Made by a program: the position numbers and the translations under genes
Shown: positions 23,373 to 42,500 of the stretch, piece after piece
How the letters are laid out: the number at the start of each line of letters is the position of its first letter
Numbering within the stretch: position 1 is the first letter of the stretch
Assembly (NCBI GenBank): GCA_016209535.1
Contig: JACQVW010000236.1
Span: 1 to 54,863 of the forward strand
DNA from: Planctomycetota bacterium
GTDB taxonomy: Bacteria > Planctomycetota > UBA8108 > SXIK01
Length of the DNA stretch: 54,863 bases
Direction of reading: 5' to 3'
Notes under the pieces: model-generated
Told to the model about the DNA's origin: nothing
Database searches by the model: none
What the model saw: the letters and a program-made list of their open reading frames with translations, nothing else

Positions 23373-24158
23373 ATGAAGAGCCCCTTCCCTGGCATGGATC
23401 CCTTCCTCGAGGCCCACTGGGGAGATGTCCACACGAGCCTGGTCACGTACGCACGCGATCAGCTTCGCGGGCAGATCCCGGAGGATCTGAGGGTTCGGGT
23501 GGAAGAGCAAGTCGCGGTCGAGGCGCCCGACGGCAATGGAGCAGCGTTCTACCCGGACGTCCGAGTGCTGGAGACGGCAGGCCCGGCACCTCCGTCGGGT
23601 GCCAAGGCAGCCGGCACTGCCGTGGCGGATCCGCTCATCTTGCCCTACGAGATCGAGCCGCCGACACTGCGCTCGATCCGCATCACGGACGTCCGGTCGG
23701 GCAATCGCGTGGTCACGGCGATCGAGCTCCTCAGCCGGGCCAACAAGCTTGGCGAGAAGCGCCGCCAGCAGTACATCCAGAAGCAGGAGGAGCTGCTGGG
23801 CGGCGGTGTCAACCTCGTCGAGGTCGACCTCCTGCGGGCTGGACGCTACGTCCTCGCGGCACCGGAAGAGGACTTACCGCCCGAGTACCGCAAGCCCTAC
23901 CGCATCTGCGTCACGCGGCTGCAGCCGCCGCGGCGCGAGGTGTACCGCGTGACGCTCCGGGAACGCTTGCCAATCATCCGGGTTCCGCTCCGGCCGCGAG
24001 ACCCCGATGCGCTGCTCGACATGCAAGCGCTCGTCGACGCGAGCTACGAAGCCGGGGGCTACGACGACATCGACTACCGCGTCGAGCCGGCGCCGGCGCT
24101 CGAAGGGGACGATGCGACCTGGGCCGATGCGCTCTTGCGGCAGGCCGGCAAGCGGTGA
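23373..24158 (+). CDS. DUF4058 family protein (second paralog)
   Basis: MKSPFPGMDPFLE, IELLSRANK and NLVEVDLLR motifs. Confidence 0.9.
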   Translation: MKSPFPGMDPFLEAHWGDVHTSLVTYARDQLRGQIPEDLRVRVEEQVAVEAPDGNGAAFYPDVRVLETAGPAPPSGAKAAGTAVADPLILPYEIEPPTLRSIRITDVRSGNRVVTAIELLSRANKLGEKRRQQYIQKQEELLGGGVNLVEVDLLRAGRYVLAAPEEDLPPEYRKPYRICVTRLQPPRREVYRVTLRERLPIIRVPLRPRDPDALLDMQALVDASYEAGGYDDIDYRVEPAPALEGDDATWADALLRQAGKR

Positions 24159-24243: not shown

Positions 24244-25896
24244 TCACCTCGCCGCCGGCCGGCTCGTGAAGACGATGTCGCCCCGTGAGCCGCCGAGGTC
24301 CATGTCGAGCTCCCCCCGCGTCCCGCCGTCGTCGGCGCGGTCAGGGCCGACGGAGTAGAGAGTCCAGGCTCCGCCCGCCTCGCCCTTGAGCTTGAGGGGC
24401 CTCCCGTCGAAGGGATCGAGCGGCACCGCCTCGAGGAAGCGCGGCACGAGGTCCTCGAGCCGCCCCGGGGAGCGCCCCTCGGCGAGGCGGAAGCGGTGCA
24501 TGGCGAGGCCCGCGCGCAAGAGGCGCCGGTAGGCGGTCGCCTCGGCGGCCCCGGGCAGAGCCTCGGCGAGGCCGATCATGCCGCTCGTCCGGATAGGCGC
24601 CGGCCTCGCCGCGCGGGGCGGGTCCAGCCCCTTCGGGAAGCCCCTGGCGAGGCGAGCGCGCGCCTCGCCGATGCGCTCCCGCACCTCCGCGAGGTCGTCC
24701 GAGAGGTGCAGGATGCGGTAGAGGTCGCCGCCCCGCTCGAGCGGAAAGCCGAAGACAGGCGCGTTCGACGCCTCCGTCGCGGTGCGGGCGGCCTGCGCGA
24801 GGCTCATGGCCGCCTCGACGCGCAGGACGGGCTCGAGGAGCCGGTCGTAGTCGACCTCGTCGACGGGGCCCAGCGCATCGAGGTCCGCCGCGGCGAGCGC
24901 GGGGTGCGCCAGCGCCGCCTCGAGGGGCTGGATGGCGTGGCCCACGTACGCGCAGCCGACGGCAAACCGGAGCAGGTACGGGGGCCCCGCGCGCACGAGC
25001 TGGTCCGAGACCGCGAGCAGGGCGCGGACATCCTTCAGCGCCTCCTCGGGCTTCCCGGCCTCGATGCGCTGGCGGGCGTGCTCGAGGAGGACGTGGTGGA
25101 GGTCCAACTCGTGCAAGGTCGACGGCCACGCCGGCTCGAGGACCTCATCCCGCTCGCCGTCGAGCTCTATCCCGCGCCCGGGGAAGACCGCCGCCTCGTG
25201 GAGCCTCGCGATGTCGTCCGCGTGGCGCGCGAGGAGCCTCTCGACCTCGCCTGAGGGAAACCGCCGCGGGTCCCAGACATCCTCCTCGTCCGACTCCGGC
25301 TCCTCGGCCTCCGCCGCCGGCTCGGGTGCACCTTCGTGCCAGAGCTCGCAGAACACGCCGTCGAGGAGTGCCTTCGCCACCTCGGGCTGCTCCGGGTCGT
25401 CCTTGAAGCTCGCGACCACCTCCTCGTAGACCGCCGCGACGTTCTGCTCCTCGGGGAGAGCCTCCGGCACGACCTCCTCCACGAGCCGCTCGGCCTCGAG
25501 CCGCGCCGCGCGGATCTCGCGAGCGGTCCAGGCGAAGCTCGAGATCAGGAGGACCGTCCACCCAAGGAAGCCGTAGGAGAAGAGCCCGAAGACGAGCCTC
25601 GGCGGCCACCGGCCGGCGCGGGGGCCGAGGAACGCCGCGCCGGCGAGCCAGAACAGGCACGCTGCGGGCAGCACGTACCGCCACTTCAGGTCGACCTGCG
25701 GTGCTGCGATGGTCGGCTCGGAGATCCACGCGAGGACGTTCAGGATCCCGATCCCCGTGGCAAGGGCCAGGACCGCCAGGACGTACAGGAAGCCCCGCAC
25801 GAGGCGCCACCTCATGCCCTCGGTCCCCCGGAGGTAGAGCGCGAGGACCGTGAGGAGCCAGGTCAGGGTGGCGAGGAGAAGCACGACGGAGAGCAT
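24244..25896 (-). CDS. Membrane protein with helical domain and pseudopilin GspG-like C-terminal motif
   Basis: Four N-terminal TM segments; C-terminus AMHRFRLAEGRSPGRLEDLVPRFLEAVPLDPFDG...LYSVGPDRADDGG. Confidence 0.75.
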   Translation of the reverse strand: MLSVVLLLATLTWLLTVLALYLRGTEGMRWRLVRGFLYVLAVLALATGIGILNVLAWISEPTIAAPQVDLKWRYVLPAACLFWLAGAAFLGPRAGRWPPRLVFGLFSYGFLGWTVLLISSFAWTAREIRAARLEAERLVEEVVPEALPEEQNVAAVYEEVVASFKDDPEQPEVAKALLDGVFCELWHEGAPEPAAEAEEPESDEEDVWDPRRFPSGEVERLLARHADDIARLHEAAVFPGRGIELDGERDEVLEPAWPSTLHELDLHHVLLEHARQRIEAGKPEEALKDVRALLAVSDQLVRAGPPYLLRFAVGCAYVGHAIQPLEAALAHPALAAADLDALGPVDEVDYDRLLEPVLRVEAAMSLAQAARTATEASNAPVFGFPLERGGDLYRILHLSDDLAEVRERIGEARARLARGFPKGLDPPRAARPAPIRTSGMIGLAEALPGAAEATAYRRLLRAGLAMHRFRLAEGRSPGRLEDLVPRFLEAVPLDPFDGRPLKLKGEAGGAWTLYSVGPDRADDGGTRGELDMDLGGSRGDIVFTSRPAAR

Positions 25897-25940: not shown

Positions 25941-27766
25941 TCAACCTCCGCTCCCCTCCTCGATCTCGCGCAGCAGGCCCTCCGCGGCGCCTCGCAGGGC
26001 CGCATCGCCCGCCTCGGCGGCGATGCGCCGGAGGGCCGGGGCGACCGCCGCGGGCTCTCTCGCGACGCGCCAGAGGCCCTGCGCCGCACGCAGCCGCACC
26101 CGCGGCTCCGGGTCCTCGAGCACCCGCTCGAGGGCGCCCTTCGCGCGCTCCCCGACCCCGAGGCCCGGCTCGAAGAGGACCGAGAGCGCGCCCGCGGCCT
26201 CCTCCCGGCGGGCCGGGTCCGCGGCGCGCAGCCTCTCGAGGAGCACCGGGAGCGCGGCCTCTGCGCGCCTCGCGAGTCCCGCCGCGGCGGGGCTCGCGAG
26301 GCCCGGCAGGCCGGAGAAGTCGCGAGACTCCTCGCGCGAGAGGACCTCGAGGAGGACCGGGACGAGCTCGAGGTCCTCGACGGCGGCCGCCTCGAGGGCC
26401 CCGAGCGCCGCCTCGACGACCTCCCTCGCCGGCGAGCGAACGGCATCGAGGAGCGCCGGGACCGCGGGCCGCGCGGCAGGGCCCAGCCCGGCGAGGGCCC
26501 ACGCCGCGGCCGTGGCCGCCTCGGCACGCTCCGAGCGGAGGATCGCCGAGGCGCGCTCGACGACGACCCGCGGGTCGGGCTTGAGGTCCTGGAGGGCCGC
26601 GATCGCCCCGGCCCGCACCACGCTCGCCTCGTCCTCGAGGGCCTCGACGAGCGCCGGAGCCGCGTCTCGAGCCTCGGCGCCGATCCTGCCGATCCAGCAC
26701 GCGGCACGAGCGCGCGCGTGGGGGTCGCCTCCCTTCAGGGCCTCGAGGAGGACCGGCACACGCGGGGCTCCGCATCCTTCAAGGCCCCGAGGAGGACGAG
26801 GAGGATGCGGCCGCGGGGGAAGGTCTCGTCCCAGTACATCGCCGAGAGGACATGGATGCTCTCCTCCCGCGCCGGAGCGTCACCCGAGCGGAGGATCTCG
26901 ATCAGGGCCTGGACGGTCCTCTGCCCCCCGGGGTCGAGGCGGATCAAGACCGTCGTGAACGCCCCTTGCGCCTGATCGATGCCGCGGACCAGGACCGGGA
27001 CCGCTTCGCGCGCCTCGGGGCTGATCGCGGCGAGGGCCGCGGCCGCCGCGGCGCGCACCCTCAGGTCGAGGTCCTCGAGGGCGCCGATCAGAGCCTGCAC
27101 GCTCTGCGCCGCGGCCCCCTCGTAGCGCCCCACGGCCGCGGCGGCCTCGGCACGCAGCTCGTCGAGGGGGTCGGCGACGGCCCGCGTGAATAGATCCAGG
27201 GCCTCGGGGCCGCAGGGCGCCAGGCCGCAGAGCGCGCCGAGGGCCCAGCGGCGGACCTCGAGCCGAGGCGAAGCTGCACCATCGAGGAGGGTGGGGACGG
27301 CGAGCTTGCCCATGGCGAGGAAGGTGCTCGCGACCCGTTGTCCGTGCCGCTCGTCCCCGAGCCAGCGGAGCAGGACGGGCGAGTACCGCGGGTCCGGTTC
27401 GCCGGAGCCCAAGAGCTCGGACAGTGCGTTCTCCTGCAGCTCCTGGGCCTCCCGCGAGCGCAGCCCGAGAACCGCGTCGAGGACCGCGGGCCCCCCTCCG
27501 AGGAAGCCAAGGATGCCGCGCGGCCGCAGGTCGGGATGGAGCTCGCCCCGCAGGAGCTTCGAGATCCGCGGCACGGCCCGCTCGGAGCGGCGCAAGACGA
27601 GGCTCTCCGCCGCGCTCCGGACGACCGCGGGGTCCTGCGACCCGAGGCGTGCGAGGAGCCAGCGCTCCTCGGCGAGGGGCCGGATGAGCGGCCACGAGCC
27701 CGCGAGGGCGGCGAGGAGGACGGCGAAGGCCACGATCGCCGCGCGGCGCCCTCTCGCCCGGCTCAT
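25941..27766 (-). pseudogene. Membrane-anchored HEAT-repeat protein split by a frameshift (ORFs 27766-26735 and 26759-25941)
   Basis: Both ORFs are HEAT repeats (ALIGALEDLDLRVRAAAAAAL; ALVEALEDEASVVRAGAIAAL). The frame changes at ...ALKDAEPRV | VPVLLEALK near 26760. Confidence 0.65.
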
Positions 27767-27785: not shown

Positions 27786-30434
27786 TCAAGCCTTCTTCAC
27801 CTTGGCGATGTCGATCCCGATCTTCTCGATGGCCTCCTCCAGGGGTTGGAGCTTGCGCGCGAAGATCCTGTGGACCTGCGCCCGCCCCTGGTCGGCCGGG
27901 AGCCCGTCATCCACCCCGTGCAGCTCCCGCAGCGCCTCCTCCAGGCCCCGCTGTATCCGCTGGACCTCCCCGCGCCAGTCGTCCCAGCGCCCTGCCTCCT
28001 CGATCTTCCCCGCCGCCTCCTCGAGCCGGCTCATGGAGCTCATGATCTTCATTTGCGTGAAGAGCTTGACGATGACCGTGGGAGGCGCCTCGACCTTGCG
28101 CCGCTCGCGCACCTGCGCCTCGACGTCGGTCAGCGCGTCGTAGAGGCGGGCCCAATGTTCCCGGTCGCGCCGCGCGTGCGCCTGGAGCCCCTCCTGGACG
28201 ATCGTCTCGACGAGCTTCCCGTACCGGTCGACCTTCTCGAGGGCTTTTCTCGCCTGCTGCGCCTCGGCCGCGTCGGTCTGGCTCGCCTTCCCCCCCTCGC
28301 GGGCGCTCCCCAGGACCGCACTGGCCTTCGCCCGCATCTCGCCGAGGGACTCGAGGCACCGCGCGGCGGCCTGGCAGAAGACCTCCCGGGTAGGGTCCAT
28401 GTCGTCCTTCGGAGGCTCGAGGACCCTCGCCAGGCGCCGCAGCGCCTCGTGGACCTCCTGCCGCTCGAGGGGCTGCTGCTCGAGCATGCGCGCGACCTCG
28501 GCGAGGAGGCCCTCGGCTCGCGAGCGGGCCTCCGCGCCAAGCGCCTGACCCTGGTCTCGGAGACCGCGCCACCGTTCCGCCAGCTCCCCGTAGCGCCGGA
28601 TCAGCTCCTCGGCGGAAGGAACCTCGGGCACATCGAAATGGACCCCGACGTTCGCCTTCGCGACGATGCGTCCTTCCTTCGTGCGCACCCGCGCCGCGCC
28701 GCGCACCTGGTTCTTCTCGGTGACCTCGACCTCCAGGTCGACGAGGGAGCCGCGCCCTCCCTCGGCGGGGATGTCCTCGATGCGGATCTCGCCGATGGGG
28801 TCCGCCTCCTGATAGAGGAGGATCGAAAGGTTGGGGTTGTCGTTCTGCCGCTGGAAGGTCTGGCAGCAGCGGGCGGGGAGAGCCACGCCCTCCTCAGCAA
28901 GGGGCACGAGCCCCTCCTGGGTCAAGATGAAGAGCGGCCGAGGCAGCACCGTGGTCACGCTGGATGCGTCCGCGCTCTCCGGGGCGTGGAGCACCTGGAA
29001 GGCGTGCTCGAGGACGAGCCCGCCGTCCCGCCGCGCGACCCGCAGGACGAAGGCGTTGGCCGCGCCCTCCTGGAGCGCGACGCCGGGGAAGTAGAACCGC
29101 CCTTCCGCGGTCAGGTCCCGCGGCCCCAGGTCGCTCCCGTCCGGCAAGCGCAGGGTGACGGCCAGCGGCGCTGCCGCGCGCCCATCCCCCGCCCCCATCA
29201 CGGTCCCGGCGACGTTGATCATCTCGAGCACGGACGTCTCGGGCACCTCGAGCAGCACCTTGCAGCCCGGTGCCTCGACGACGGGAGGAAGGACCATCTT
29301 GGCGTGGATGGCCGCGCCGGCCCCCACGCACAGGTCCGGGAAGAAGAGCTTGGGTCTCGAGCCGGGGAACGCCGCGGCGACGCTCTCGGAGATCCAGGGA
29401 CCGTACGTGGACCCGCCGACCAGGAGGACCTCGTCGACGTCGGAGGGGCCGACCTTCGCTTTCTCGAGGGCCCGGCGGGAGCACTCCAGGGTGCGGTCGA
29501 TGTAGGGCTGGATCATCCGCACGAGCTCCGCGCGCGACAGTCGCTCGTTGGCCTGCACTTCGCGCCCCGAGGCGTCCACCAGCACGCCGCGGACGCGGAA
29601 CTCGACCGGGGCGTCCGACGATGGAGCCTTCGCGAGGGCGATCTTGACCCCCTCGGCCAGACGGAGGAGACGTGCGAGGCGCGCCCGGTCCTCGGGCCGC
29701 GTCTCGTCGAAGGAGACCGCACGGCCTCGGGCCTCCAGGCGGGTCCTCAGCCAGTGCACGAGCTCCCTGTCGAAGTTGTATCCGCCGAGGAGGCTGTCGC
29801 CGTCGAAGGCCCGAACGTCGATGACGCCTCCCGCACGTTCCATGTACGTGACGTCGAAGGTCCCACCGCCCAGGTCGTACGTCAAGAGGCGGAGCGGGTC
29901 ACGCTTGTCGGTCCGCGTATAGGTCAGCGCGGCGGCCACGGGCTCCATGAGCATCTGCTCCGGGAGCGACATGTCGAACCCGGCCGCGATCGCGGCCTCG
30001 CGCGTCTCCTCGACGGCTCCCCGGTCGAAGTAGGCCGGGTGCGTCACCACGGCCCGGCGCACGGGCCGCCCCAGGGCCCGCTCGGCGCACGACTTCAGGT
30101 GGCGGAGGAAGTCGCGGGCGACCTCCCGCGCGAGGACGGTGCGCTCGAGCATGGGGATGGCCTCCCGCGTGCCCATCCTGCGCTTCGAGAACATGACGGG
30201 GGCGTAGCCCTCGCTCGATTTCTCAAGGGCCTCGACCCCGAAGAGCTGCCGCGCGGGCGCATCGGGGTCGTCGAGCACGACGGACGGGAAGGTCTGCTCG
30301 CCGTGGGGGCTCGGGATGACGGTGACGTCGCACTCCGCGAGGTAGATGCCCGGAGGATAGTCCGGCGCCAGGTCCACCTTGCCGTTGACCCCGATCACGC
30401 TGAAGGTCGTGCCCAGGTCGATGCCGATGTCCAC
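27786..30434 (-). CDS. Atypical Hsp70 family protein (paralog 2)
   Basis: IGIDLGTTFS, THPAYF, EPVAAA, YDLGGGTFDV and VLLVGGST motifs; non-canonical C-terminal half; GTG start with GGAG RBS. Confidence 0.92.
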   Translation of the reverse strand: MDIGIDLGTTFSVIGVNGKVDLAPDYPPGIYLAECDVTVIPSPHGEQTFPSVVLDDPDAPARQLFGVEALEKSSEGYAPVMFSKRRMGTREAIPMLERTVLAREVARDFLRHLKSCAERALGRPVRRAVVTHPAYFDRGAVEETREAAIAAGFDMSLPEQMLMEPVAAALTYTRTDKRDPLRLLTYDLGGGTFDVTYMERAGGVIDVRAFDGDSLLGGYNFDRELVHWLRTRLEARGRAVSFDETRPEDRARLARLLRLAEGVKIALAKAPSSDAPVEFRVRGVLVDASGREVQANERLSRAELVRMIQPYIDRTLECSRRALEKAKVGPSDVDEVLLVGGSTYGPWISESVAAAFPGSRPKLFFPDLCVGAGAAIHAKMVLPPVVEAPGCKVLLEVPETSVLEMINVAGTVMGAGDGRAAAPLAVTLRLPDGSDLGPRDLTAEGRFYFPGVALQEGAANAFVLRVARRDGGLVLEHAFQVLHAPESADASSVTTVLPRPLFILTQEGLVPLAEEGVALPARCCQTFQRQNDNPNLSILLYQEADPIGEIRIEDIPAEGGRGSLVDLEVEVTEKNQVRGAARVRTKEGRIVAKANVGVHFDVPEVPSAEELIRRYGELAERWRGLRDQGQALGAEARSRAEGLLAEVARMLEQQPLERQEVHEALRRLARVLEPPKDDMDPTREVFCQAAARCLESLGEMRAKASAVLGSAREGGKASQTDAAEAQQARKALEKVDRYGKLVETIVQEGLQAHARRDREHWARLYDALTDVEAQVRERRKVEAPPTVIVKLFTQMKIMSSMSRLEEAAGKIEEAGRWDDWRGEVQRIQRGLEEALRELHGVDDGLPADQGRAQVHRIFARKLQPLEEAIEKIGIDIAKVKKA

Positions 30435-30447
30435 GGGCGGTCTCCGT

Positions 30448-33036
30448 TCAGGCAGGCTTCACGTCCCAGAGGGTTTCCTCGATCTGCTCCGCGATGGGCG
30501 TCTTCTCCCGCCCGCGGAGGATGAGCTGGAGCTTGGCCCGTCCCTGGTCGGAGGGGAGCTGGTCGTCGACCTGGTCGATGGCCTTGTCCATGGCGGCGAG
30601 CTTCGCCTCGATCGCGTCGCAGCGCCCCTTGAGCACGGCCTCGTAACGCGGGTCGGCGGCCGCCGCCTGCCGCACCTCGTTGAGGCGGAGGCGGTGCTTG
30701 TCCACTTCGTCCCGAAACACGTCCTTGAGGAGGGGCGTGGGGGGAAGGACGACAGGGGGCCCTCCCCGCTTGAGCCTTCGCAGGAGGGCCTGCAGCTTCT
30801 CGTACTCCTGCGCCCACTGCCTCTGGTTGCGAGCCAGGTAGGCGCGGTTGGCCGCGGCCTCGATGTCGTGGAGCTGCTTCCGGAGCGGCTCCGCCTGCGG
30901 GTCGGACCCGGAGGAGGGCAGCGCATCGCGGCATGCATCGAGGAGGTCCAGGAACTGGTCGCGAGACGGCGTGAGGTCCACGCGCGGCGGGTGCAGCATG
31001 CGGTCCAGCTCCTTGACCGCCCGGTGGATCTCCTGGCGGTCCGGCCGGTCTTCGGTGGTGAGCCGCTCCAGGGTCTCGACGAGCTTCTTCCCCCGCATGC
31101 CGAGCCGCGTGCGCCGCTGCTCGTCGCGCTCGTTGTGGATCTGCTCGTCGACCTCGCCCCGGAGCTCGCGGAACCGCGCCGCCAGCTCGTGCAGCTCCGG
31201 CACGGAGACCGGGGGGAACTTGATCCGTACGGGACACTCGACCACCGGCGCCCCCGTCTTGCCGAGGACCGCGGCCGTCCCCCGGATCTCGCACCGCGTC
31301 GTGATCTCGCCCTCGATCAACACGTCACAACCAGCGCCCGCATCGGGCGGGATGTTCTCCACGCGGATGGTGCCGATGCGGTCTTCTTCCTGAAAGACGG
31401 GGATCGCGAGGACCGAGTCGCTGTGAAGCCTCACGAAGGTCCCCCGGAACTTGGTAGGCAGGTCCACGTCCTCCTCGGCCATGTTGACCCGCCCTTCGCG
31501 CGCCTCCAAGTAGAGCGTCTTGGGCAACCGGGGGACCAGCTTGGTGCCCCCGCCAGCGGGGTTGTAGCGCACGGCGACATCCCCCTTCCAGCGCGCCAGG
31601 CCGTGACGGTCAGTGACCTGGACCTGGAACGGGGTGGGCCCCTCCTCGAGGAGGGGAACGTCGGGGAAGAGAAACTCGCCCGCATCGTTGGGCGCCGTCG
31701 CGTGCGTCTTGCCGTCGGGGGTCGTGAGGAGGACCTTCAGGTCCTTCGAGGCGGCCCCGAGCGCTGCCCCGTCGCCCGCGGAGCGGATCCGCCCGCGCAC
31801 CTGCACCTCCGGAAGCGGAGACTCCGGCGGGACCTCGAGCTCGACCGAGAGGTCGCCCGAGGACGTGACCTCCGGCAGCTCCGCGGCCCGGAGGGCCGCG
31901 CCGGCGGCCACGCAGAGGTCCGGGTTGAAGAGGAGCCTCTCGATGCCGAAGGCGGCGCCGACGGCGTCCTGGACCCACTTCCCATAGGAGGACCCTCCCA
32001 CGAGCAGGATCGCGTCCAGATCCTCCTTCCCGACCCCCGCCTTCCCGAGCGCCTTCCGGCAGCACTCGATCGACTTGTCGAGGTGGTCCTTGATGAGCTG
32101 CGCGTACTCGTCGCGGGTGATCTTCTCGATGATCTGGATGGGCCTTCCTTCCGAGTCGGTGAGGATGTCCTGGCCCTTGATCGGGCAGGCGACCTTGCCC
32201 CCGTGCAGATCGTTGAGCGCGAGCTTGACCTTCTCCGCAAGCTGGAGGAGGCGGGCGTGGCGCGCGCGGTGCTGCGGGTCCGCCTCGTCGTGAGGCGGGA
32301 GCGTCCGGCCCGCCGCCCGGAGCTTCTCCCGGACCCTGTCCAGGATCCAGCGGATCAGCTCGCGGTCGAAGTTGTAGCCTCCCAGGAGGTGATCCCCGTC
32401 GAACGCCTTCGTGCTGATCACCCCCTCGCGCCGCTCCAGGACCGCCACATCGAAGGTGCCGCCGCCGAGGTCATAGGTCATGACCCGCAGGGGGTCCTTC
32501 GAGTTCCCCTGGACGTAGGCGTGGGCCGCGGCCTCGGGCTCCTTCATCATCTGCTCGGGGCGCGACATGTCTAACCCGGCGTCGATGGCCGCCTGCCGCG
32601 TCTCCTCCACCTGATTGGGATCGAAGTAGGCCGGGTGGGTCACCACCGCGCGGCGCACGGGGTGACCGAGGGCCTGCTCCGCGCAACCCTTCAGGTACGT
32701 GAGGATCCTCGCCGCCACCTCCCTTGCCGTGAGGTCCCGGTCGTGCATCCTCAAGCGCTCCGTCGTCCCGATGGAGCGCTTGGAGAACATGATGGGGCTC
32801 TCGCCCTCCTGGGCCTTCTGCTTGGCATCGGAGCCGACGATGTACTTCCCGGGGTCTCCCGGCTCCTCCCAGTAGACCGAGGGGAAGGTCGCTTCGCCCA
32901 GCGGCGAGAGGATGATCGTGACGTCGCACTCCTCGATGTACGTGCCGCCCCAACCTCCCGGGAGATCCACGCGGCCCTTGATGGCTATCACGCTGAAGGT
33001 CGTCCCGAGGTCGATCCCGATGTCCTGCATTCCCAT
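30448..33036 (-). CDS. Atypical Hsp70 family protein (paralog 1)
   Basis: IGIDLGTTFS, THPAYF, EPEAAA, YDLGGGTFDV and ILLVGGSS motifs; colinear with paralog 2. Confidence 0.92.
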   Translation of the reverse strand: MGMQDIGIDLGTTFSVIAIKGRVDLPGGWGGTYIEECDVTIILSPLGEATFPSVYWEEPGDPGKYIVGSDAKQKAQEGESPIMFSKRSIGTTERLRMHDRDLTAREVAARILTYLKGCAEQALGHPVRRAVVTHPAYFDPNQVEETRQAAIDAGLDMSRPEQMMKEPEAAAHAYVQGNSKDPLRVMTYDLGGGTFDVAVLERREGVISTKAFDGDHLLGGYNFDRELIRWILDRVREKLRAAGRTLPPHDEADPQHRARHARLLQLAEKVKLALNDLHGGKVACPIKGQDILTDSEGRPIQIIEKITRDEYAQLIKDHLDKSIECCRKALGKAGVGKEDLDAILLVGGSSYGKWVQDAVGAAFGIERLLFNPDLCVAAGAALRAAELPEVTSSGDLSVELEVPPESPLPEVQVRGRIRSAGDGAALGAASKDLKVLLTTPDGKTHATAPNDAGEFLFPDVPLLEEGPTPFQVQVTDRHGLARWKGDVAVRYNPAGGGTKLVPRLPKTLYLEAREGRVNMAEEDVDLPTKFRGTFVRLHSDSVLAIPVFQEEDRIGTIRVENIPPDAGAGCDVLIEGEITTRCEIRGTAAVLGKTGAPVVECPVRIKFPPVSVPELHELAARFRELRGEVDEQIHNERDEQRRTRLGMRGKKLVETLERLTTEDRPDRQEIHRAVKELDRMLHPPRVDLTPSRDQFLDLLDACRDALPSSGSDPQAEPLRKQLHDIEAAANRAYLARNQRQWAQEYEKLQALLRRLKRGGPPVVLPPTPLLKDVFRDEVDKHRLRLNEVRQAAAADPRYEAVLKGRCDAIEAKLAAMDKAIDQVDDQLPSDQGRAKLQLILRGREKTPIAEQIEETLWDVKPA

Positions 33037-33074: not shown

Positions 33075-33548
33075 TCAGGCGTCAAACACCATGTCGAGCT
33101 GCCGGTCCTTCTCGTCGCCCGGCCCCACGAGGCCAAGGTCGGACCACGCCGGAAGCTCCGCGGCTTCCACTCCCGGCGCCGGCAGGAGCCAGAAGATCCC
33201 CAGGGGGTGGATGAGCCCGATGGGGAAGCGCTCGTCCGGGACCACGGCGAGCCCGCGGAGCTTCTCCGCGAGCGCCTTCAGCTTGCCGCCTTCCTTCTTC
33301 CCCTGCGGGTGGACCAGGAGGAGCTCCTGGGCGAGCGGGCCGGGGTCCCGGAGCCGGGCCGAGGCCTCCTGGATCGCGTGCTCGTCGAGCTCGCGGCCCG
33401 CGAGCTCGACCTTCTCGAAACCGAGCTTCAAGCGCAGGCTCTCGGCCTGCGCCACGATCTGCTGGGGCGTGGCGTTGGGGCCGAGCCGCAGCTTGCCGAA
33501 GTAGTTGAAGACGTAAGGGTTGGTCCCGCGTTCCCATCGCAGCGGCAT
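33075..33548 (-). CDS. Small protein with degenerate J-domain-like N-terminus (no HPD)
   Basis: NYFGKLRLGPNATPQQI...IQEASARLRDP resembles DnaJ helices (DYY.ILGV...A...EI / INEAY..L.DP). ATG lies 2 nt after the upstream stop. Confidence 0.65.
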   Translation of the reverse strand: MPLRWERGTNPYVFNYFGKLRLGPNATPQQIVAQAESLRLKLGFEKVELAGRELDEHAIQEASARLRDPGPLAQELLLVHPQGKKEGGKLKALAEKLRGLAVVPDERFPIGLIHPLGIFWLLPAPGVEAAELPAWSDLGLVGPGDEKDRQLDMVFDA

Positions 33549-36181: not shown

Positions 36182-37558
36182 TCAGTTCCTGCTCTGGGGG
36201 CTCCTCGGTCGCGTGCCCTGGAGCTTCCGCGCGTTCTCCCGGAGGCTACCTGCCAGGGGGCCGAAGCCCAACGCCTCGTAGGCGTCGGCCATGGCAAGGA
36301 AGACCTCGGGCTCGTCAGGGAATACAGACTGCGCGGCCTCGCAGGTGTCCAGCGCCTCCTGGCCGCGTCCGAGCTGGAGGCAGCACTCGACGAGGAGGAG
36401 GCGGGCCTTGAGGAAGCGCGGGTGCTCGGCCGCGACGCTCCGGGCCAAGGCGGCGGCCTTGGCAGCCTCGCCGCGCTCGAGGAGGGCCCGGGCGTTCGCG
36501 ATCCGCGTCTCGGGCGGCTCCCGGGCCGCCGCCTCCGGTGGAGGGGGTGGGGGCGCGGCCGGCGGCACGGCGCCTCCCCTCCGGTAGGCATCGAGGTCGC
36601 TCAGGAGGGTCCGGGCGTTGGGGTAGCGCTCGGACTGGCGGAAGGCGAGGCACCTCCGGAGCATCGCCTCGAGCGCGGGGTGCTTCTCCATCTCCGGGTT
36701 GATCGCCGAGGGCGGCGGGATGCCCTCACCGCCTGCTAGAGGTCCCCCTCCTCGCGGCCCGCGGGAGAAGACGGGCCGCTTCCTCGCCTCGTGCTGGGCG
36801 CGGACGTAGCCCTGCGAGTCCCCGTCGCCGTACTCCTCGAGGCCGGCCTCCTCGAAGGGCTGCCGGCCCGTGAGCATCTCGTAGAGCAGGATGCCCGTCT
36901 GGTACACGTCCGCCGGCGGGCCGCCCGCGCCGCCGAGGAGCGTCTCTGGGGCCTGGTAGGTGACGACGCCGCCCTTCGATCCCACGGGCATGCGGGCCGC
37001 GAGGCCGAAGTCCGTGAGGACCAGGTGACTCTCGCCGACGAGGATCAGGTTGCCCGGGTGGAGGTCCCCGTGCACCGCGGGGACCTCGAGGGTGTGCATC
37101 CAGGCGAGGGGCACCAGGATCTGGCGGAGGAAGCCGAGCGCCGTCTCGACCGGCATACCGGCCTCGCTCCACCTCGCGATGGGGCTCTTGAGCGTCTTCC
37201 GGCCCGGGACGAGCTTCATGGCCACGAAGGCCCGCTTGCCCAGAGGCGTCTCAAGGACTCCCATGTCGTGGACCTGGACCAGGTGCTGCGCCACGTCCGC
37301 GGGGCACTTCTCCGTCTCCTGGAAGCTGACGAGGGTCACCACGTCGGAGAGGACCTCGCCAAGGTTGCGGCTCGAGGGGCTCTCGGCCTCGAAGAGCTTG
37401 AGCGCCACCTCGCGGAGGGCGCGGCCGAAGACGAGCTGGCGCGCTCGGTAGACGGCGCCGAAGTTGCCCGCGCCGAGGAGCTCTCGCAGGTCGAAGCGGT
37501 CCGAGAGCACCGTTCCGCCCGGGAAGTCGGCGACGCGCGGCATCCCCTCAGCGCTCAC
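36182..37558 (-). CDS. Ser/Thr protein kinase with C-terminal TPRs
   Basis: GAGNFGAVY, VALK, HGDLHPGN, DFG and YQAPE; Pro linker then TPRs. GTG 37558 (GGAGG RBS) overlaps the Clp stop; alternative ATG 37543. Confidence 0.9.
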   Translation of the reverse strand: MSAEGMPRVADFPGGTVLSDRFDLRELLGAGNFGAVYRARQLVFGRALREVALKLFEAESPSSRNLGEVLSDVVTLVSFQETEKCPADVAQHLVQVHDMGVLETPLGKRAFVAMKLVPGRKTLKSPIARWSEAGMPVETALGFLRQILVPLAWMHTLEVPAVHGDLHPGNLILVGESHLVLTDFGLAARMPVGSKGGVVTYQAPETLLGGAGGPPADVYQTGILLYEMLTGRQPFEEAGLEEYGDGDSQGYVRAQHEARKRPVFSRGPRGGGPLAGGEGIPPPSAINPEMEKHPALEAMLRRCLAFRQSERYPNARTLLSDLDAYRRGGAVPPAAPPPPPPEAAAREPPETRIANARALLERGEAAKAAALARSVAAEHPRFLKARLLLVECCLQLGRGQEALDTCEAAQSVFPDEPEVFLAMADAYEALGFGPLAGSLRENARKLQGTRPRSPQSRN

Positions 37559-39548
37559 CGCGCACCTCCCTCGGGGCCACCCCGTCGACCACCGCGGACT
37601 CCAGCACCACCGTCTCCTCGTCCTTCTTGCTCGCAACGAGCTTCGACGGCCCGACCAGCCCTCCATCCACGCCGTCGCCACAGAGCAGATCGATCGCCGG
37701 CGTGACGATGAATTGGTTGATAGCCCTCGGGGCGCCGCGGGCGCCCTCGTCCAAGCTGCGGCCGAAGGTCCTCTCCGCCAGGAAGGTCCGCACGTCCTCC
37801 TGCACCTCGATCGTCACGCCTTTCAGCTTCTGGAACTTCTCGAGCTCCCGCTCGAGCACGCCATCGACGATCTTGCGGCAGGTCGCTGGGGTCAGGGGCA
37901 GGAAGGTGATCCGCTCGTCCAGGCGGCCCAGGAACTCGGGCCGGAAGCGCCGCTTTCGCAGTTCCCTCATGGCGGCCCGGAAGAGCTTGTCGGGCAAGCT
38001 TGCAGGATTCTGTAGCTCACCGGGATGCGCACGGAGCCAGATCTGGCCTGCGTTCGTCGTCATTACGATGATGCACTTCCTGCCGTCGCGCACGGGGCCC
38101 GCGGGGTCGCTGATGACGCCCTCGTCGGCGAAGCGGAGGAGGGTGTCGAAGACCTGGGTATCCGCCTTCTCGATCTCGTCGAAGAGGACCACGCACTCCG
38201 GCTTGTCGCGGAGACCGTTGGTGAGCTTCCCCTCACCGTAGCCCACGTACCCGGGGGGGGCGCCGATGAAGCCGCTCATGGACTCCTTCGTCTTGAATTG
38301 CCCCATCTCGAGGAAGATCAGGGAGTCCTCGTCGCCGTAGACGTAGCGCGCCAGCTCCTTCGCGAGCTGCGTCTTTCCGACGCCTGTGGGGCCCAGGAAG
38401 AGGAAGACCGCCGCCGGGCGGCCGTCCCTGGGGAGCCCGAAGCGCAGGCGCTTCACCCAGGGGACGACCCTCTCGATCGCGGCCTCCTGGCCGCAGATCC
38501 GCCTTTTCATGCTCTCCTCGATCTCTCGCAGCGAAAAGCGCTGGCCCGACTTCACCTCCTCCTCCTCGGGCTCGGAGGACTCCAGGTGCTCCCGCAGGCC
38601 GTCGAGGACGAGCGCCTTCCCCGGCGGGAAGAGGCGCGCGAGCTCCTTCGTCTGGGAGGCGGCGAAGGCCCTCGCGATGTCCAGCTCGGCCATTCCGCGG
38701 GCGCCGCGCCCGCGCGCCCCGGCGCCGGCGTCCCGGAGCACGCCCTGCACGCTCTCGAAGACGAGGTCCTTGCGCAAGGCGAGGTCGTCGTTCCGCTTCC
38801 TCCCCGGATGCGTCAGCTCCCGCGCCAGGACCGCGTGCAGGTCCCGTCGGACGTCGATGCCCCGAGCTGCGAGGGCGCTGGCCAGCGGGCTCGAGTCCTT
38901 GCCGAGGAGGGTGTAGAGCATGTGGCGGCTCGTGACCTTCTTCGCGCCCAGGCTGGCGGCGTCCTCGGCCATCCGGAGGCAGAAGCTCCAGCCGCTGGGC
39001 TCGAAGGCACTGGCGACGAGCTGCCCCTCGGCGGTGAAGACCTCGTTGCCTTGCGGCAGGTCGTCCTGGCCCACGTGCTTCTTGAGCTTCTCGAGGCCCT
39101 CCTCGCCGAGCCAGAGCTCGAGCACCCGGTCGAGGTCCGAGTCCTCCGCCGCGAGGAGCCCCCGGGTGAGGAGCCTGTCCGTGACCTTCCCCGCTCCCGC
39201 GTGACGCTCCGCCGCCTCGAGCATGCGGAGGACGGGGGGGGGCACGACCGCCGAGGTCAGTCTCTGCGGCAGCTTGGCCCCCGGCACGGGGGCCGACGGG
39301 CACGCGTCCTCGAGGGTCTCGAGGAAGTCCTCAGGCTTCTTGCCCCTCCGGTCGATCAGCCATGTCCGGGCGATGGTGCCCGGGGCCTTCAAGAGGCAGT
39401 AGAGCCAGTCGCGGAGCTCGACCCGGCGGCGGCCGTGGGTCATGGCCTCGGCCAGGACCCTGTGGCCCCCCTGCGTTCCCGGTCCGAGCACCGAAGCGAG
39501 GACCGGGTCGAAGGCATCGATCTTGAGTCCCGTCTCGTCGAGCAGCAT
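37548..39548 (-). CDS. Clp/Hsp100-type ATPase with two Clp N-like domains and only the D2-type AAA+ module
   Basis: GGAGG RBS, ATG 39548. ICGQEAAI, FLFLGPTGVGKT (Walker A), GAPPGYVGY pore loop, VLFDEIEKA (Walker B), FRPEFLGRLD and GARG. No D1 module. Confidence 0.9.
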   Translation of the reverse strand: MLLDETGLKIDAFDPVLASVLGPGTQGGHRVLAEAMTHGRRRVELRDWLYCLLKAPGTIARTWLIDRRGKKPEDFLETLEDACPSAPVPGAKLPQRLTSAVVPPPVLRMLEAAERHAGAGKVTDRLLTRGLLAAEDSDLDRVLELWLGEEGLEKLKKHVGQDDLPQGNEVFTAEGQLVASAFEPSGWSFCLRMAEDAASLGAKKVTSRHMLYTLLGKDSSPLASALAARGIDVRRDLHAVLARELTHPGRKRNDDLALRKDLVFESVQGVLRDAGAGARGRGARGMAELDIARAFAASQTKELARLFPPGKALVLDGLREHLESSEPEEEEVKSGQRFSLREIEESMKRRICGQEAAIERVVPWVKRLRFGLPRDGRPAAVFLFLGPTGVGKTQLAKELARYVYGDEDSLIFLEMGQFKTKESMSGFIGAPPGYVGYGEGKLTNGLRDKPECVVLFDEIEKADTQVFDTLLRFADEGVISDPAGPVRDGRKCIIVMTTNAGQIWLRAHPGELQNPASLPDKLFRAAMRELRKRRFRPEFLGRLDERITFLPLTPATCRKIVDGVLERELEKFQKLKGVTIEVQEDVRTFLAERTFGRSLDEGARGAPRAINQFIVTPAIDLLCGDGVDGGLVGPSKLVASKKDEETVVLESAVVDGVAPREVRGER

Positions 39549-39559
39549 GGGCCGACCTC

Positions 39560-42500
39560 CTATCCTCCCTTCGTGACGTCCGCCGCGATGATCTCCTGGA
39601 GGGCGCTCCTGGCCTTCCGTTCTCCCTCCCTCGCCTTGGCGAGGTCGCCTTTCACCACGCTCTCGGCCGTCTCCCGGGCGTACGCGAGGCCGATCAGGAG
39701 CCGGACGCGCGGATCGGCCAGGTCGGCGACGCAAGCCGGGAGGTCGTCCTTCAGGAGCTTGGACCACCGCTTCGCCCGGAAGTGCGCCGAGGCCGCCGCG
39801 AGCCAGAGGTCCACGTCCGCGGGCAGGCGGTCCAGGATCGGCTCGAGCCTCGAGTAGGCCTCGAGGTAGTCGGCGTCGCGGCAGTGGAGCCACGCGCAGA
39901 TGGCTCCGAGGAGCGCCGCCGGCTCCTCGCGCCAGGCCGCCGCGCTCCCCCGACCGGTCCCGAGCGCCGCCAGGACCTCGCCGGCGGCCTCGGCTCTGCG
40001 CGCCGGGTCCGCGGCCCACAGCCCGGCGACGCTCGCGCCCGGCCAGGGCGCCAGCTCCCGCCACGAGCCCGGATCGAAGGAGGGTGGCGACCGCCCGATC
40101 TCCACGGCCCGGGCGAGGAGGTAACGCCAGCGCCGGAGCACGGCGTCCTCGGTGGAAGGGAACGCCAGGTCCAGCTCCTCGAGGCAGGTCGCGGCCTCGC
40201 CGATCGATTCCATGGACACGCGCCCGGCCCTCGCCTTCTCGAGGAGGCGCCGCTCGGCCTCGAACCAGTTCGTCCTGTCGTCGCGCCCTCGCCCCGTCTC
40301 CTCCCAGACCTTGCGAGCCTCCCGGGCGATCGCGTCGTGCGCCGGTGCCTCGACGGGCCGCCAGACCCGCGAGAGGACCCGCCAGGCCTTGAGCACGAGA
40401 CGCGTCCGCAGGCTCGAGGGAGCGCCCTCCAGGGCCCGCCCGGCGAGGGCCTCCCACGCGCCCTGGAGCTTGCCCGCCTCGAGCAGGCGCCGGGCGTAGA
40501 GCTGAACGAAGGGGAGGGCCCCGCGGGAGCCGCCTCCCAACGAATCCACCTCCCTGCGCAGGCCGCCGAGGCCCGCTGCGGGCCAGGAGAGGATCCGGTG
40601 GAGGCTCGCGTAGGGCGCGCACCAGCCGATGGACTTGCCGCCGCGCTCGAGGAGCTCACCGACCTTCTCGCCGGAACCGCCCGCCGTCGATCCCGCCGCG
40701 TAGGCGCGCCGGACCAGGATGCGGCCCAGGCGCGCCGAGGTCACGGGGTCACCGGCGGAGGCGCGCAGCGCCTTGCGGTGCATGCGCTCGGCCTCCGCGT
40801 CGTTCCCGCGCCGCTCCTCGAGGGCGGCGGCGAGGCGGAGCGCCGCGAGCCGGTAGGGCGTCTCGACGCCGGGGAAGGCCGCATCGAACGCGTCGAAGGA
40901 GTCGAGGAGCCGCCGCGCCTCCTCCGCCTGGCCCCGCCGCTCGAGGAGGAGGGCCCGAGCGTAGAGGATGCCGGGGAAACGCGGCGGCAGGTCCGCGATC
41001 CAGCGGCCGGCGGCCTCCAGGTCCCCGTCGCGAAGGGCGAGGACCGCGAGCTGCGCGCGAGCCTCGAGCCCCTTGGGCCCGCCGGCGACCGCCACGAGGG
41101 ACTCTCTCGCTTCCGCGGGGCGCTCCTCCGCCACGGCGACGCCGCGCCAGTACCGGAGCGCCGGCAGCCACCAGGCTCGGCAGAGCGGCGGGAGGCTCCG
41201 CTCGACGTGGGCGATCAGCTCGTCGAACCGGTGCGAGGCGGAGCGGCCTCGGCCGTTCGCGATCTCGTGACGCGCCGCGGTCATGTCAGCCTCGAGCCTC
41301 AGCTCCTCGAGGAGCACGTCTCCCGAGACCTCTCCCAGCCCCCAGAGGCCTCGCGCCGCCTCGACATCGCACGAGCTCGCGTCCTCGCGGTGGCCGCGGC
41401 GCCGCGAGGCCCTCAAGGAGGAGAGGACGCGGGCCGCCGCGGACCGGGTGGACTTCACGACCTCGTCGAGGCAGCGGCCGCTCTCCTCGATCAGCTCCCG
41501 GGCGCGGGCCGAGAGACCCGCATCGCCGTAGCCGTAGAGCGCCCACCAGCCCTCGACGGCCCAGGCCACCGCGGGCTGCGACGCGTCCAGCGAGCGGAGG
41601 ACGGCGTCGTCCCCGGCCTCGGCCCAGCGGAGGAGACAGGCGCGCGCGTGGACCCAGCGCACCCAGGCCGGCGGCGCCTCGACCGACGGCGGCGCCTCGG
41701 GAGGGACGGCGCCTTCCGTTCGCTTCGCCAGCACGCCGAGCGCGAAGGCGAGCACCGCAGCGGTCGAGGCCAGCGCGGGGGCGCGGAGGCACCCGTCCTG
41801 GCTCCGGGCGGCCTCCAGGCCGTGAGCCACGGAGGCATCGGCGACCTCGTCGGCGGCCGCGGCGGCTCCCAGGACTCGGAAAGCGGCCTCCTCGAGGAGC
41901 GAGAGGAGCGCGTCCGGGTCCCTCGCGGCCGGCGGAGCCATGCCCGCGAGGAGCCTCGCGACCCGGGCCAGGAAGCGCGCAGGCGACGACGAGGCCACGT
42001 CGGGCACCTCCAGGCGGACCACGGCCTCGGCGTGGCGCCCGTCGATCCAGATCTCCTTCTCGGCGATCCCCACCTCGGCCCAGGGCAGCCTCCCGGCCAG
42101 GCTCCGGAGGGCCTCGCAGAGGGCGGCGCGTCCTGCCACGTCCCCCGGCGGCAGAGGGCTCGTCACCTCGAGGACCGGACGGAGCAGCGAGACCGCCAGC
42201 TCCACCTCCCTCGAGTCGAGGTCGCCATGGCGGGCAAGGATCACCGGGAGAAGGCCGCGCGCCCGCTCGAGCGTGGGCTCGCGATAGAGGTCGATCATGG
42301 GCTCGAGGCGCACCCAAGGCGGCCACCCCTCGCCGTCGGCCGCCACGAACCCCTCCTCCGGCTGCCCGCCGGGGAGGTGAAGGCGGGCCCGCGAGACCCA
42401 GTACCGGGGCGCGATGTCGCCCGGGAGGAGCTGCCTCGCCTCGAGCGCGAGGGTCTCCATGTCGCGCCAGCGCCCCTCCCACTCGGCGGCGCGGGCCCGC

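Follow-up and report, generated by a model that had tools for sequence, protein, structure and literature searches.

Introduction

In Hsp110, the extra sequence lies within the beta part (SBD-beta) of the domain that binds substrates and also at the C-terminus. HSP70 is named in some conflict systems, together with GAP1-N2/DO-type GTPases, GrpE and tubulin, in the passages on it by Kaur, Burroughs, Iyer and Aravind (2020; PMC7159879). The type III CoCoNuT protein CnuD combines an Hsp70-like nucleotide-binding domain (NBD) and substrate-binding domain (SBD) with HEAT-like repeats and carries degenerate Walker-A-like motifs, according to the part of PMC11090510 that describes it, and a passage of a 2026 preprint holds that an HSP70-like NTPase can replace the STAND NTPase as the switch of tripartite immune architectures (10.64898/2026.10.19.760177). 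Here we describe two adjacent genes for long Hsp70s, HspA and HspB, and the operon to which they belong, in a stretch of 54,863 nucleotides (the window) that corresponds to positions 1 to 54,863 of contig JACQVW010000236.1 from the Planctomycetota assembly GCA_016209535.1. The host assembly comprises 9.1 Mb and is 80% complete, and the contig has a GC content of 72%.

An earlier note on this DNA had taken the pair for specialised Hsp70s with intact ATPase motifs and a replaced substrate-binding half, acting possibly as a heterodimeric ATP switch rather than as a general foldase. We found no description of the family or of the operon in a literature search of openly accessible papers without their supplements, and the passages of a study of true DnaK paralogues (PMC11019930) do not cover the long-Hsp70 family.

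The long Hsp70 family

HspA and HspB represent a distinct and ancient family of long Hsp70s, made up of two old orthogroups (A and B) that occur in many phyla. Relatives that match at full length, with 37-53% identity and 97-100% coverage, numbered more than 100 in a protein search and, where the organism is named, these belong to Planctomycetota, Acidobacteriota (Terracidiphilus, Thermoanaerobaculia), Bacteroidota, Immundisolibacter, Armatimonadetes and others. The sequence features described below for HspA and HspB recur together in over 100 full-length homologues, which is far beyond chance. Reciprocal BLAST split the relatives into 89 HspA-like and 32 HspB-like proteins; after 7 partial, fused or duplicate rows were dropped, 114 full-length sequences (83 A and 31 B) served for the analysis of residue conservation.

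In the window both open reading frames (ORFs) are intact, with a GC content at third codon positions (GC3) of 0.92, and only 13 nt separate them. HspA and HspB align colinearly from end to end with 40% identity, which is distributed unevenly among the domains (NBD 55%, beta-sandwich 33%, SBD-beta 36%, lid 25%). We built a quick IQ-TREE phylogeny from 57 rows of our own choice, namely 18 A and 14 B homologues, the window pair, 8 locus variants, 9 of 80 DnaK loci, the E. coli proteins DnaK, HscA, HscC and YegD, and the two other Hsp70s of the genome. DnaK, HscA and HscC form one clade (SH-aLRT 100) in which none of the 34 A and B rows is found, and the long family forms a separate clade (93) with its B branch supported at 99 and its A branch at 92/98. 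The identity between the two proteins and their separation into two orthogroups bear out the old, colinear but diverged duplication suggested by the earlier note. A third small clade corresponds to a single-copy form. Within the DnaK/HscA clade, and away from the family, E. coli HscC stands on a long branch (2.25), so that its exact place is unsure, as is the placement of several variant rows because of their long branches.

In agreement with the tree, the scores of the two proteins stay far below the curated NCBIfam cut-offs. With the DnaK models they reach 191.1 and 208.4 bits for TIGR02350 (cut-off 822.55) and 189.8 and 206.5 bits for NF001413 (cut-off 648), and for HscA (TIGR01991) 163.1 and 182.6 bits against 708.55, in an operon without isc genes. 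The YegD-type model (NF008673, cut-off 331) gives 41.2 and 23.2 bits, and the presence of an SBD shows that the proteins are not of the NBD-only type. The view of the earlier note that these are specialised, non-housekeeping Hsp70s is therefore supported both by the scores and by the position outside the DnaK clade.

A search of genome contigs with a single protein found no relative. The same search with the family alignment returned 80 loci, nearly all of them ordinary DnaK because the search pattern YDLGGGTFD is common to DnaK, and a sole distant relative in a Myxococcales metagenome-assembled genome (MAG). This single-copy protein of 872 aa (L039:9959-22211) is 28% identical over residues 6-752; its gene is followed by those for a 478-aa unknown protein and for a TPR protein longer than 2700 aa, and is preceded by RelA/SpoT-like and MBOAT genes.

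Domain architecture

Both proteins display the NBD of the Hsp70 superfamily (PF00012), with the phosphate-1, phosphate-2 and adenosine motifs of the actin-like fold and the catalytic Lys, Glu and Asp. The motifs are located in HspA/HspB at residues 7/4 (GIDLGTT), 84/82 (FSKR), 133/131 (THPAYF), 189/187 (DLGGGTFD) and 345/338 (LVGGS). Across the 83 A and 31 B sequences D9, T12, T13, K86, E166, D189, G191, T194, D196, G347 and S349 are invariant, as is the stretch G191-T194. In this sense the retention of the ATPase motifs, already reported for both proteins in the earlier note, extends to the catalytic residues of all 114 sequences, and HspA and HspB should be competent ATPases, with every catalytic residue intact. 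Two peculiarities of the NBD that had also been pointed out characterize the whole family. The His of THPAYF (H134) is kept in 113 of 114 members, a change from Val with respect to the two canonical-architecture Hsp70s of the same genome (contigs C640 and C125), and the insert after the first motif appears in these two proteins as a 17-column gap. The match to the Pfam HSP70 profile (E 5e-54 and 7e-55) is confined to residues ~95-387 and ends at position 377 of the 599 in the profile.

The C-terminal half of HspA (residues 385-862) was modelled with AlphaFold2 (AF2) from the 114-row alignment, with a mean pLDDT of 94.5 and a pTM of 0.73. The model opens with a beta-sandwich at model residues 5-107, to which a second beta domain (124-222), a set of ten helices (231-470) and a short terminal strand are added; the additional sandwich, the further beta region and the long tail of helices that the earlier note had described are thus all present in it. 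However, the substrate-binding half is kept, not replaced, because both structure and sequence match canonical SBD-beta and SBD-alpha. In Foldseek against the PDB all the leading matches are SBDs of DnaK/Hsp70 (4r5k_A, E 1.6e-8, probability 1.00). With VIA, model residues 112-227 superpose on the SBD-beta of Kar2, mortalin, BiP and DnaK (Z 12.7-11, root-mean-square deviation (rmsd) 2.3-2.7 Å, ~105 residues, 15-22% identity), the best match being Kar2 (3h0x; Z 12.7, rmsd 2.3 Å, 104 residues), and the helices that follow align on the SBD-alpha of DnaK. The sequence alignment agrees, with 'LPTKF...VFQ...IGTIRVENIP' in the family against the canonical 'IPVIR...VLQGE...LCQFQLTGIEP'. HspA residues 496-611 are thereby identified as a canonical SBD-beta followed by a lid, so that AF2, Foldseek and VIA together place in HspA the SBD-beta and helical lid expected of the Hsp70 superfamily. 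The claim of a replaced half must accordingly be dropped: the C-terminal half is predicted to fold as canonical SBD-beta/alpha, but the proteins do not group within housekeeping DnaK.

What is new, according to the model, is a macroglobulin (MG)/Ig-like domain that separates the linker from SBD-beta, together with a lid that has grown to ~240 residues. The inserted domain and the larger lid make HspA and HspB ~250 residues longer than DnaK, HscA and HscC, and HspB shares the architecture of HspA with an additional segment in its lid. A wide VIA search over 48,161 chains, independent of Foldseek, matched the sandwich (model residues 9-110) with macroglobulin and other Ig-like domains, the best match being MG4 of complement C5 (Z 10.3, rmsd 2.3 Å, 95 residues). 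As the identity with C5 MG4 is only 10%, we regard the inserted sandwich as a generic fold. The linker, which the earlier note had declared missing for want of DVLLLD, appears to be degenerate rather than absent, since 'LSVELEVP' (family consensus LxLDVP) aligns with the canonical 'ALLLDVLP'. In the AF2 model this degenerate LxL(D/E)VP segment forms a strand of the inserted sandwich and stands ~100 residues away from SBD-beta. Pfam scans of the C-terminal halves at E up to 10 yielded sub-threshold noise only (e.g. CarboxypepD_reg, E 0.25), and no longer fused form of this half was found among 8000 candidates, which is weak evidence.

Some 5-8 residues before the C-terminus, the proteins of both orthogroups have a short conserved strand of the hydrophobic-D-hydrophobic type (window 30451-30480; for example WDV in HspA, GIDI in HspB). 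Some of the SBD structural alignments reach this terminal strand (model residue 476-477); we considered its docking in the SBD groove and make no claim of it. A complex prediction for HspA 385-862 with HspB 381-882 scored 0.00, with no control pairs, and says nothing for or against binding.

A conserved operon

The pair lies in a run of ten same-strand genes with tiny gaps between them, in the order giant TPR protein, AAA+ ATPase, Ser/Thr kinase-TPR protein, TPR protein of 875 aa (TPR875), J-like protein, HspA, HspB, two HEAT-repeat proteins and a 550-aa protein (Table 1). We scanned metagenome contigs with a degenerate DNA pattern for AV[VI]THPAYF and obtained 63 loci, of which 59 hold an ORF of the Hsp70 family and 4 gave no Hsp70 match. 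The synteny sample consisted of 25 distinct contigs with the J-like gene, 24 of them metagenomic and the other (G192) from the phylum of the window. An Hsp70 gene stands directly downstream of the J-like gene in 25/25 contigs and a TPR875 homologue directly upstream in 23/23 assessable ones; homologues of the AAA+ and giant TPR proteins were found on all 11 contigs with enough upstream DNA, and the kinase on 9 of these (it is missing in L098 and L104). HspB directly follows HspA in 12 of 17 assessable contigs, the five others being L102, L139, L141, L154 and L156; L102 carries a convergent A-B pair ~4 kb away. Locus GC ranges from 35 to 72% across the metagenome contigs. The genes for the giant TPR protein, AAA+, kinase-TPR, TPR875, J-like protein, HspA and HspB constitute a conserved operon of about seven genes.

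A second, diverged mini-module was observed on the other strand of L141 (2445-6821, +), beside a complete system that has only the A form. Its products are a weakly TPR875-like protein (494 aa), a small protein (162 aa) and an Hsp70 (794 aa), which suggests that a TPR protein, a small protein and an Hsp70 may make up the basic unit.

The J-like protein, just upstream of HspA, has no Pfam family and no Pfam DnaJ match even at E 10, and is represented by 80 cluster representatives in a library of 1.84 billion proteins. When its profile was compared with the PDB, 13/13 matches were J-domains, the best being DnaJ 1bqz (E 0.012, DnaJ residues 4-64). The HPD tripeptide is not present in the family: at the position of 'YHPDRN' in DnaJ the consensus reads 'klkagk', and the invariant His80 sits further along, in ELLLVH. 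Its C-terminal half holds conserved hydrophobic motifs and ends in LD(I/V)VFD. In the AF2 model (pLDDT 89.6), residues 6-84 superpose on J-domains with Z 6-8.1 and rmsd 2.6-3.2 Å over 60-69 residues, and nearly all of the top 50 VIA matches are J-domains; Foldseek is not significant (best E 0.13), though its list consists almost entirely of J-domains. The support is consistent across methods, and we assign with moderate confidence a J-domain fold without HPD to this 158-aa neighbour. The earlier note had likewise placed a J-like protein beside the pair.

Among the remaining members, the AAA+ protein is composed of an N-terminal part of 330 aa without a family and a module of the ClpB/ClpA/ClpV D2 type. 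Neither this N-terminal part nor the giant TPR protein had a match in a PDB sequence search, and Atlas look-ups gave only 'hypothetical' or generic TPR clusters. The true start of the kinase is probably near 37545, because the listed start overlaps the AAA+ gene. The 550-aa protein falls into 'hypothetical protein' clusters of the Atlas, commonest in Planctomycetota.

Table 1. Position and identification of the operon genes and of the HspA domains in the window.
Feature	Position	Strand	Basis
Giant TPR-containing protein, 1552 aa, first in run	39560..44218	-	Pfam TPR_19
AAA+ ATPase, 669 aa	37548..39557	-	Pfam AAA_2 E 9e-40, ClpB_D2-small; NCBIfam ClpB profile positions 551-831
Protein kinase (Ser/Thr) with TPR at the C-terminus	36182..37681	-	Pfam Pkinase E 1e-21, TPR_19
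TPR protein (P0003, TPR875), 875 aa	33551..36178	-	Pfam TPR
J-like protein, 158 aa, start at sixth codon of listed ORF	33075..33548	-	Profile against PDB, AF2, VIA
HspA (P0002), long Hsp70, orthogroup A, 862 aa	30448..33036	-	ORF and translation; Pfam HSP70 E 7e-55; A clade in tree
HspA NBD, residues 1-384, with THPAYF and 17-residue insert after GIDLGTT	31885..33036	-	Pfam, motif positions, alignment with canonical Hsp70s
HspA inserted beta-sandwich, macroglobulin/Ig-like (predicted), residues 389-491	31564..31872	-	AF2 strands; VIA wide search
HspA SBD-beta (predicted), residues 496-611	31204..31551	-	VIA against 3h0x; Foldseek; alignment with canonical Hsp70
HspA enlarged helical lid (predicted), residues 615-862	30451..31194	-	10 helices and terminal strand in AF2 model; VIA
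HspB (P0001), long Hsp70, orthogroup B, 882 aa	27786..30434	-	Pfam HSP70; B-clade support 99
HEAT-repeat protein, 343 aa, downstream cargo	26735..27766	-	Pfam HEAT_2 E 5e-17
HEAT-repeat protein, 272 aa, downstream cargo	25941..26759	-	Pfam HEAT_2 E 1e-17
550-aa protein without family, last same-strand gene	24244..25896	-	No Pfam, NCBIfam or PADLOC match

Pfam GrpE (PF01025) is absent from the window, and its only two matches in the genome are on contigs C203 and C125, as the earlier note's remark on the lack of a nearby grpE would have it. No Pfam J-domain is found in the window either, and such domains are present on seven other contigs of the genome. A compact run of J-domain, GrpE and Hsp70 genes was observed on C125 (341-2951), and a pair of J-domain and GrpE genes on C203; these point to at least two other Hsp70 gene sets in the genome besides the window pair. 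Two plus-strand genes lie near the end of the run with no evident operon link, one for a DUF4058 protein just past the last operon gene (window 23373-24158; E 1e-60) and another, on the strand opposite to the operon, for a 1069-aa protein with a PPDK_N ATP-binding domain (window 20047-23256).

Downstream genes and distribution

The part downstream of HspB is variable, since the HEAT and 550-aa genes of the window have no homologues in the other loci (E 1e-5). The genes that follow or adjoin the system encode TPR, vWA, PP2C, kinase and RHS proteins in L098, an RHS protein and a DUF4062-TPR-TIR protein in L134, a CHAT protein in L114, a TIR-CHAT-Clp_N protein in L139 and HEAT and DA1-like proteins in L104. 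Two CHAT proteins in L156, and a DUF4062 protein with two TIR-like proteins in L107, are encoded on the opposite strand. Fusions also occur: a protein joining an Hsp70 NBD to a kinase and CHAT follows the J-like gene in L102, and Hsp70-TIR fusions were found in L100 and in the homologues P0029 and P0111. HspA-like genes without the upstream module stand in TIR-NACHT islands in L117 and L100 and, in L143, behind a CHAT-Clp_N gene with TraG and IS1 genes nearby.

Clp_N is the adaptor or substrate-binding N-domain of Clp/Hsp100 ATPases. Large proteins of effector type that join it to TIR and/or CHAT lie beside HspA in two loci (L139:3923-7054 and L143:6515-9544), and a docking relationship between these proteins and the operon AAA+, with its D2-type module and N-terminal 330 aa, is possible. 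In L098 (12779-15933) a vWA-PP2C-kinase triad lies just downstream of HspB, and in E. coli K-12 (NC_000913 2147674-2153128, L161) yegD is annotated beside yegI (Ser/Thr kinase), pphC (PP2C) and yegL (vWA-type). An Hsp70-family gene beside a vWA-PP2C-kinase triad may be a recurring theme.

The system is patchy, being found in 2 of 401 genomes sampled from the phylum of the window. The J-like profile gave no hit in 24 genomes of one small phylum or in 401 genomes of the phylum of the Myxococcales MAG, while the positive control was recovered in 2/2; the genome of this MAG has no J-like homologue by the same profile.

Discussion

Hsp70s are well studied, yet this family shows an Ig-like insert, a tripled lid, a J-like partner that lacks HPD and a fixed context of several genes found across many phyla. 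We infer from these features and from the neighbouring genes that the operon may encode a dedicated Hsp70/J-like/AAA+ remodelling machine that gates effectors of conflict or programmed-cell-death type, and not a general foldase; to this interpretation we give an even chance of being right. In such a machine the TPR proteins would act as scaffolds or sensors and the J-like protein would deliver or tether a specific client to the SBDs of the Hsp70s. This client would be remodelled through Hsp70 ATP cycles, which the Hsp100-like AAA+ would assist and the kinase would modulate, and the remodelling would set the activation threshold of the downstream cargo, whether TIR, CHAT, RHS, vWA-PP2C-kinase or, in the window, HEAT proteins. 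For component binding, client identity and biological role alike, this is what we infer. A bolder version, which we offer tentatively and with less confidence than the gating itself, is that the operon may define a new class of immune or programmed-cell-death systems, in which a long-Hsp70 pair, an HPD-less J-like protein and an Hsp100-like unfoldase would serve as the switch in place of a STAND NTPase or MoxR, the TPR proteins would sense an invader or stress, and TIR, CHAT, RHS or other effectors would be licensed.

Several observations weigh against the gating of effectors. Downstream of the pair in the window stand two HEAT genes and one for a 550-aa unknown, none of which codes for a recognisable toxic effector, and effector-type domains occur near the system in only ~7 of the 12 loci with enough downstream DNA, some of them on the opposite strand (L156, L107). 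Since genes for TIR, CHAT, TPR and kinase proteins are abundant in the large genomes of complex bacteria, their adjacency could be coincidental, and the locus counts are not independent samples because the loci were retrieved by a family-specific motif and may include related organisms. In PADLOC-DB 2.0 nothing matches HspA, HspB, the TPR proteins and the J-like protein, the kinase and AAA+ match generic kinase and AAA models only (such as PD-T4-6, mad6, PDC-M37B and DolB), and the neighbours match just at the level of domains (TIR, kinase, HEAT, TPR). Finally, a complete SBD and lid in both Hsp70s fit ordinary client folding equally well.

This last point leads to the main alternative, a private Hsp70-J-Hsp100 bi-chaperone like DnaK-DnaJ-ClpB that would fold, assemble or disaggregate particular housekeeping clients without any conflict role, for example large TPR/HEAT proteins or an envelope or cell-biology structure. 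Both Hsp70s retain all catalytic residues together with SBD-beta and lid, the AAA+ partner has a D2-type module as in ClpB/ClpA, and the cargo of the window, made of HEAT and unknown proteins with no toxin-like domain, fits this explanation no worse. Nevertheless, an occurrence in only 2/401 genomes from the phylum of the window does not resemble a housekeeping need, the cargo varies and abounds in TIR, CHAT and RHS, members of the family are fused to TIR or kinase-CHAT, and the operon includes neither GrpE nor a canonical J-domain with HPD; we judge this alternative rather unlikely, if a serious contender. The model of the earlier note, in which the substrate-binding half is replaced and the paralogues act as an obligate heterodimeric ATP switch, could appeal to the 13 nt between the genes and to the 12/17 assessable contigs where HspB follows HspA, and also to the Pfam profile match, which stops at position 377/599. 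Moreover, the fusion of an NBD alone to kinase-CHAT in one relative indicates that the NBD can serve as a switch module. However, the canonical SBD-beta and lid refute the 'replaced' part, and heterodimers cannot be obligatory for the family since HspB is not directly downstream in 5/17 contigs and a third, single-copy clade exists, which makes this model improbable as a whole. That HspA and HspB are ordinary extra copies of DnaK, HscA or HscC for general folding is what the sources of the relatives seem to imply, with names such as 'Hsp70 family protein' or 'molecular chaperone DnaK', and the DnaK and HscA models are indeed the best NCBIfam matches by E-value. Yet the scores lie far under the curated cut-offs, the family stands outside the DnaK/HscA/HscC clade, the proteins are ~250 residues longer through the inserted domain and the enlarged lid, and no dnaJ, grpE or isc gene accompanies them, so we find such ordinary copies scarcely credible.

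If the operon does gate TIR, caspase-like or RHS effectors, a chaperone-driven switch would be added to the logic of bacterial immunity, and the system would offer a tractable model for the wiring of the Hsp70 cycle to signalling; if the immune class proposed above is real, it would constitute a parallel, built on Hsp70, to NLR-like or MoxR-vWA ternary systems. Even as private proteostasis, it poses the questions of how Hsp70 allostery crosses a 100-residue insert and what a J-domain without HPD does.

Comparison with known systems

The family resembles Hsp110/Sse1-Hsp70 and yeast RAC (Ssz1-Zuo1), where atypical or enlarged Hsp70 paralogues go together with a second Hsp70 or a J-protein. Hsp110/Grp170 proteins serve a partner Hsp70 as nucleotide-exchange factors by contact between the NBDs. 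The structures 3d2e (Sse1-Hsp70) and 5mb9 (RAC) are among the structural matches of the C-terminal half (Z 8.5-8.9), the resemblance to Sse1 being at Z 8.5. Unlike Hsp110, HspA has a separate, predicted MG/Ig-like domain that precedes SBD-beta, and HspA and HspB keep every catalytic residue.

With CnuD, the window shares the association with HEAT proteins, which follow HspB as separate genes. However, CnuD works with a McrB-like GTPase and McrC homologues, as the part of PMC11090510 on this protein describes, whereas the window proteins belong to a family with invariant ATPase residues, and Pfam scans of the operon genes found no McrB-like GTPase or McrC (DUF2357) domain. The conflict systems of Kaur et al. 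(2020; PMC7159879), as set out in the passages concerned, show a likeness of general design, with an NTP-driven chaperone-type core, repeat proteins, kinases or phosphatases and variable effectors (TIR, caspase-like, repeat). The HSP70 passages of that paper contain no operon of TPR proteins, ClpB-D2-type AAA+, kinase, J-like protein and tandem long Hsp70s; in turn, the window operon has no MoxR or GTPase gene, which distinguishes it from the MoxR-vWA ternary and GTPase systems.

E. coli HscC is comparable as a specialised Hsp70 encoded beside its own J-proteins DjlB and DjlC and the TPR-like Sel1-repeat proteins YbeQ and YbeT (NC_000913 annotation). It differs in that it groups with DnaK/HscA, is of normal length with 556 aa by its annotated coordinates and has partners annotated as J-domain proteins, in a locus without AAA+, kinase or tandem pair. 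With respect to the DnaK system, the long Hsp70s exceed DnaK by ~250 residues, with a sandwich ahead of SBD-beta, an enlarged lid (~240 residues) and a linker that appears degenerate; they lie far below the NCBIfam cut-off and outside the DnaK clade, and they are accompanied by a J-like protein without HPD and by an AAA+ with the D2-type module only, in an operon that lacks GrpE. Even so, an actin-like NBD with its catalytic motifs, an SBD-beta, a helical lid, a partner with a predicted J-fold and an AAA+ of Hsp100 type are all elements that the window operon has in common with DnaK-DnaJ-GrpE/ClpB.

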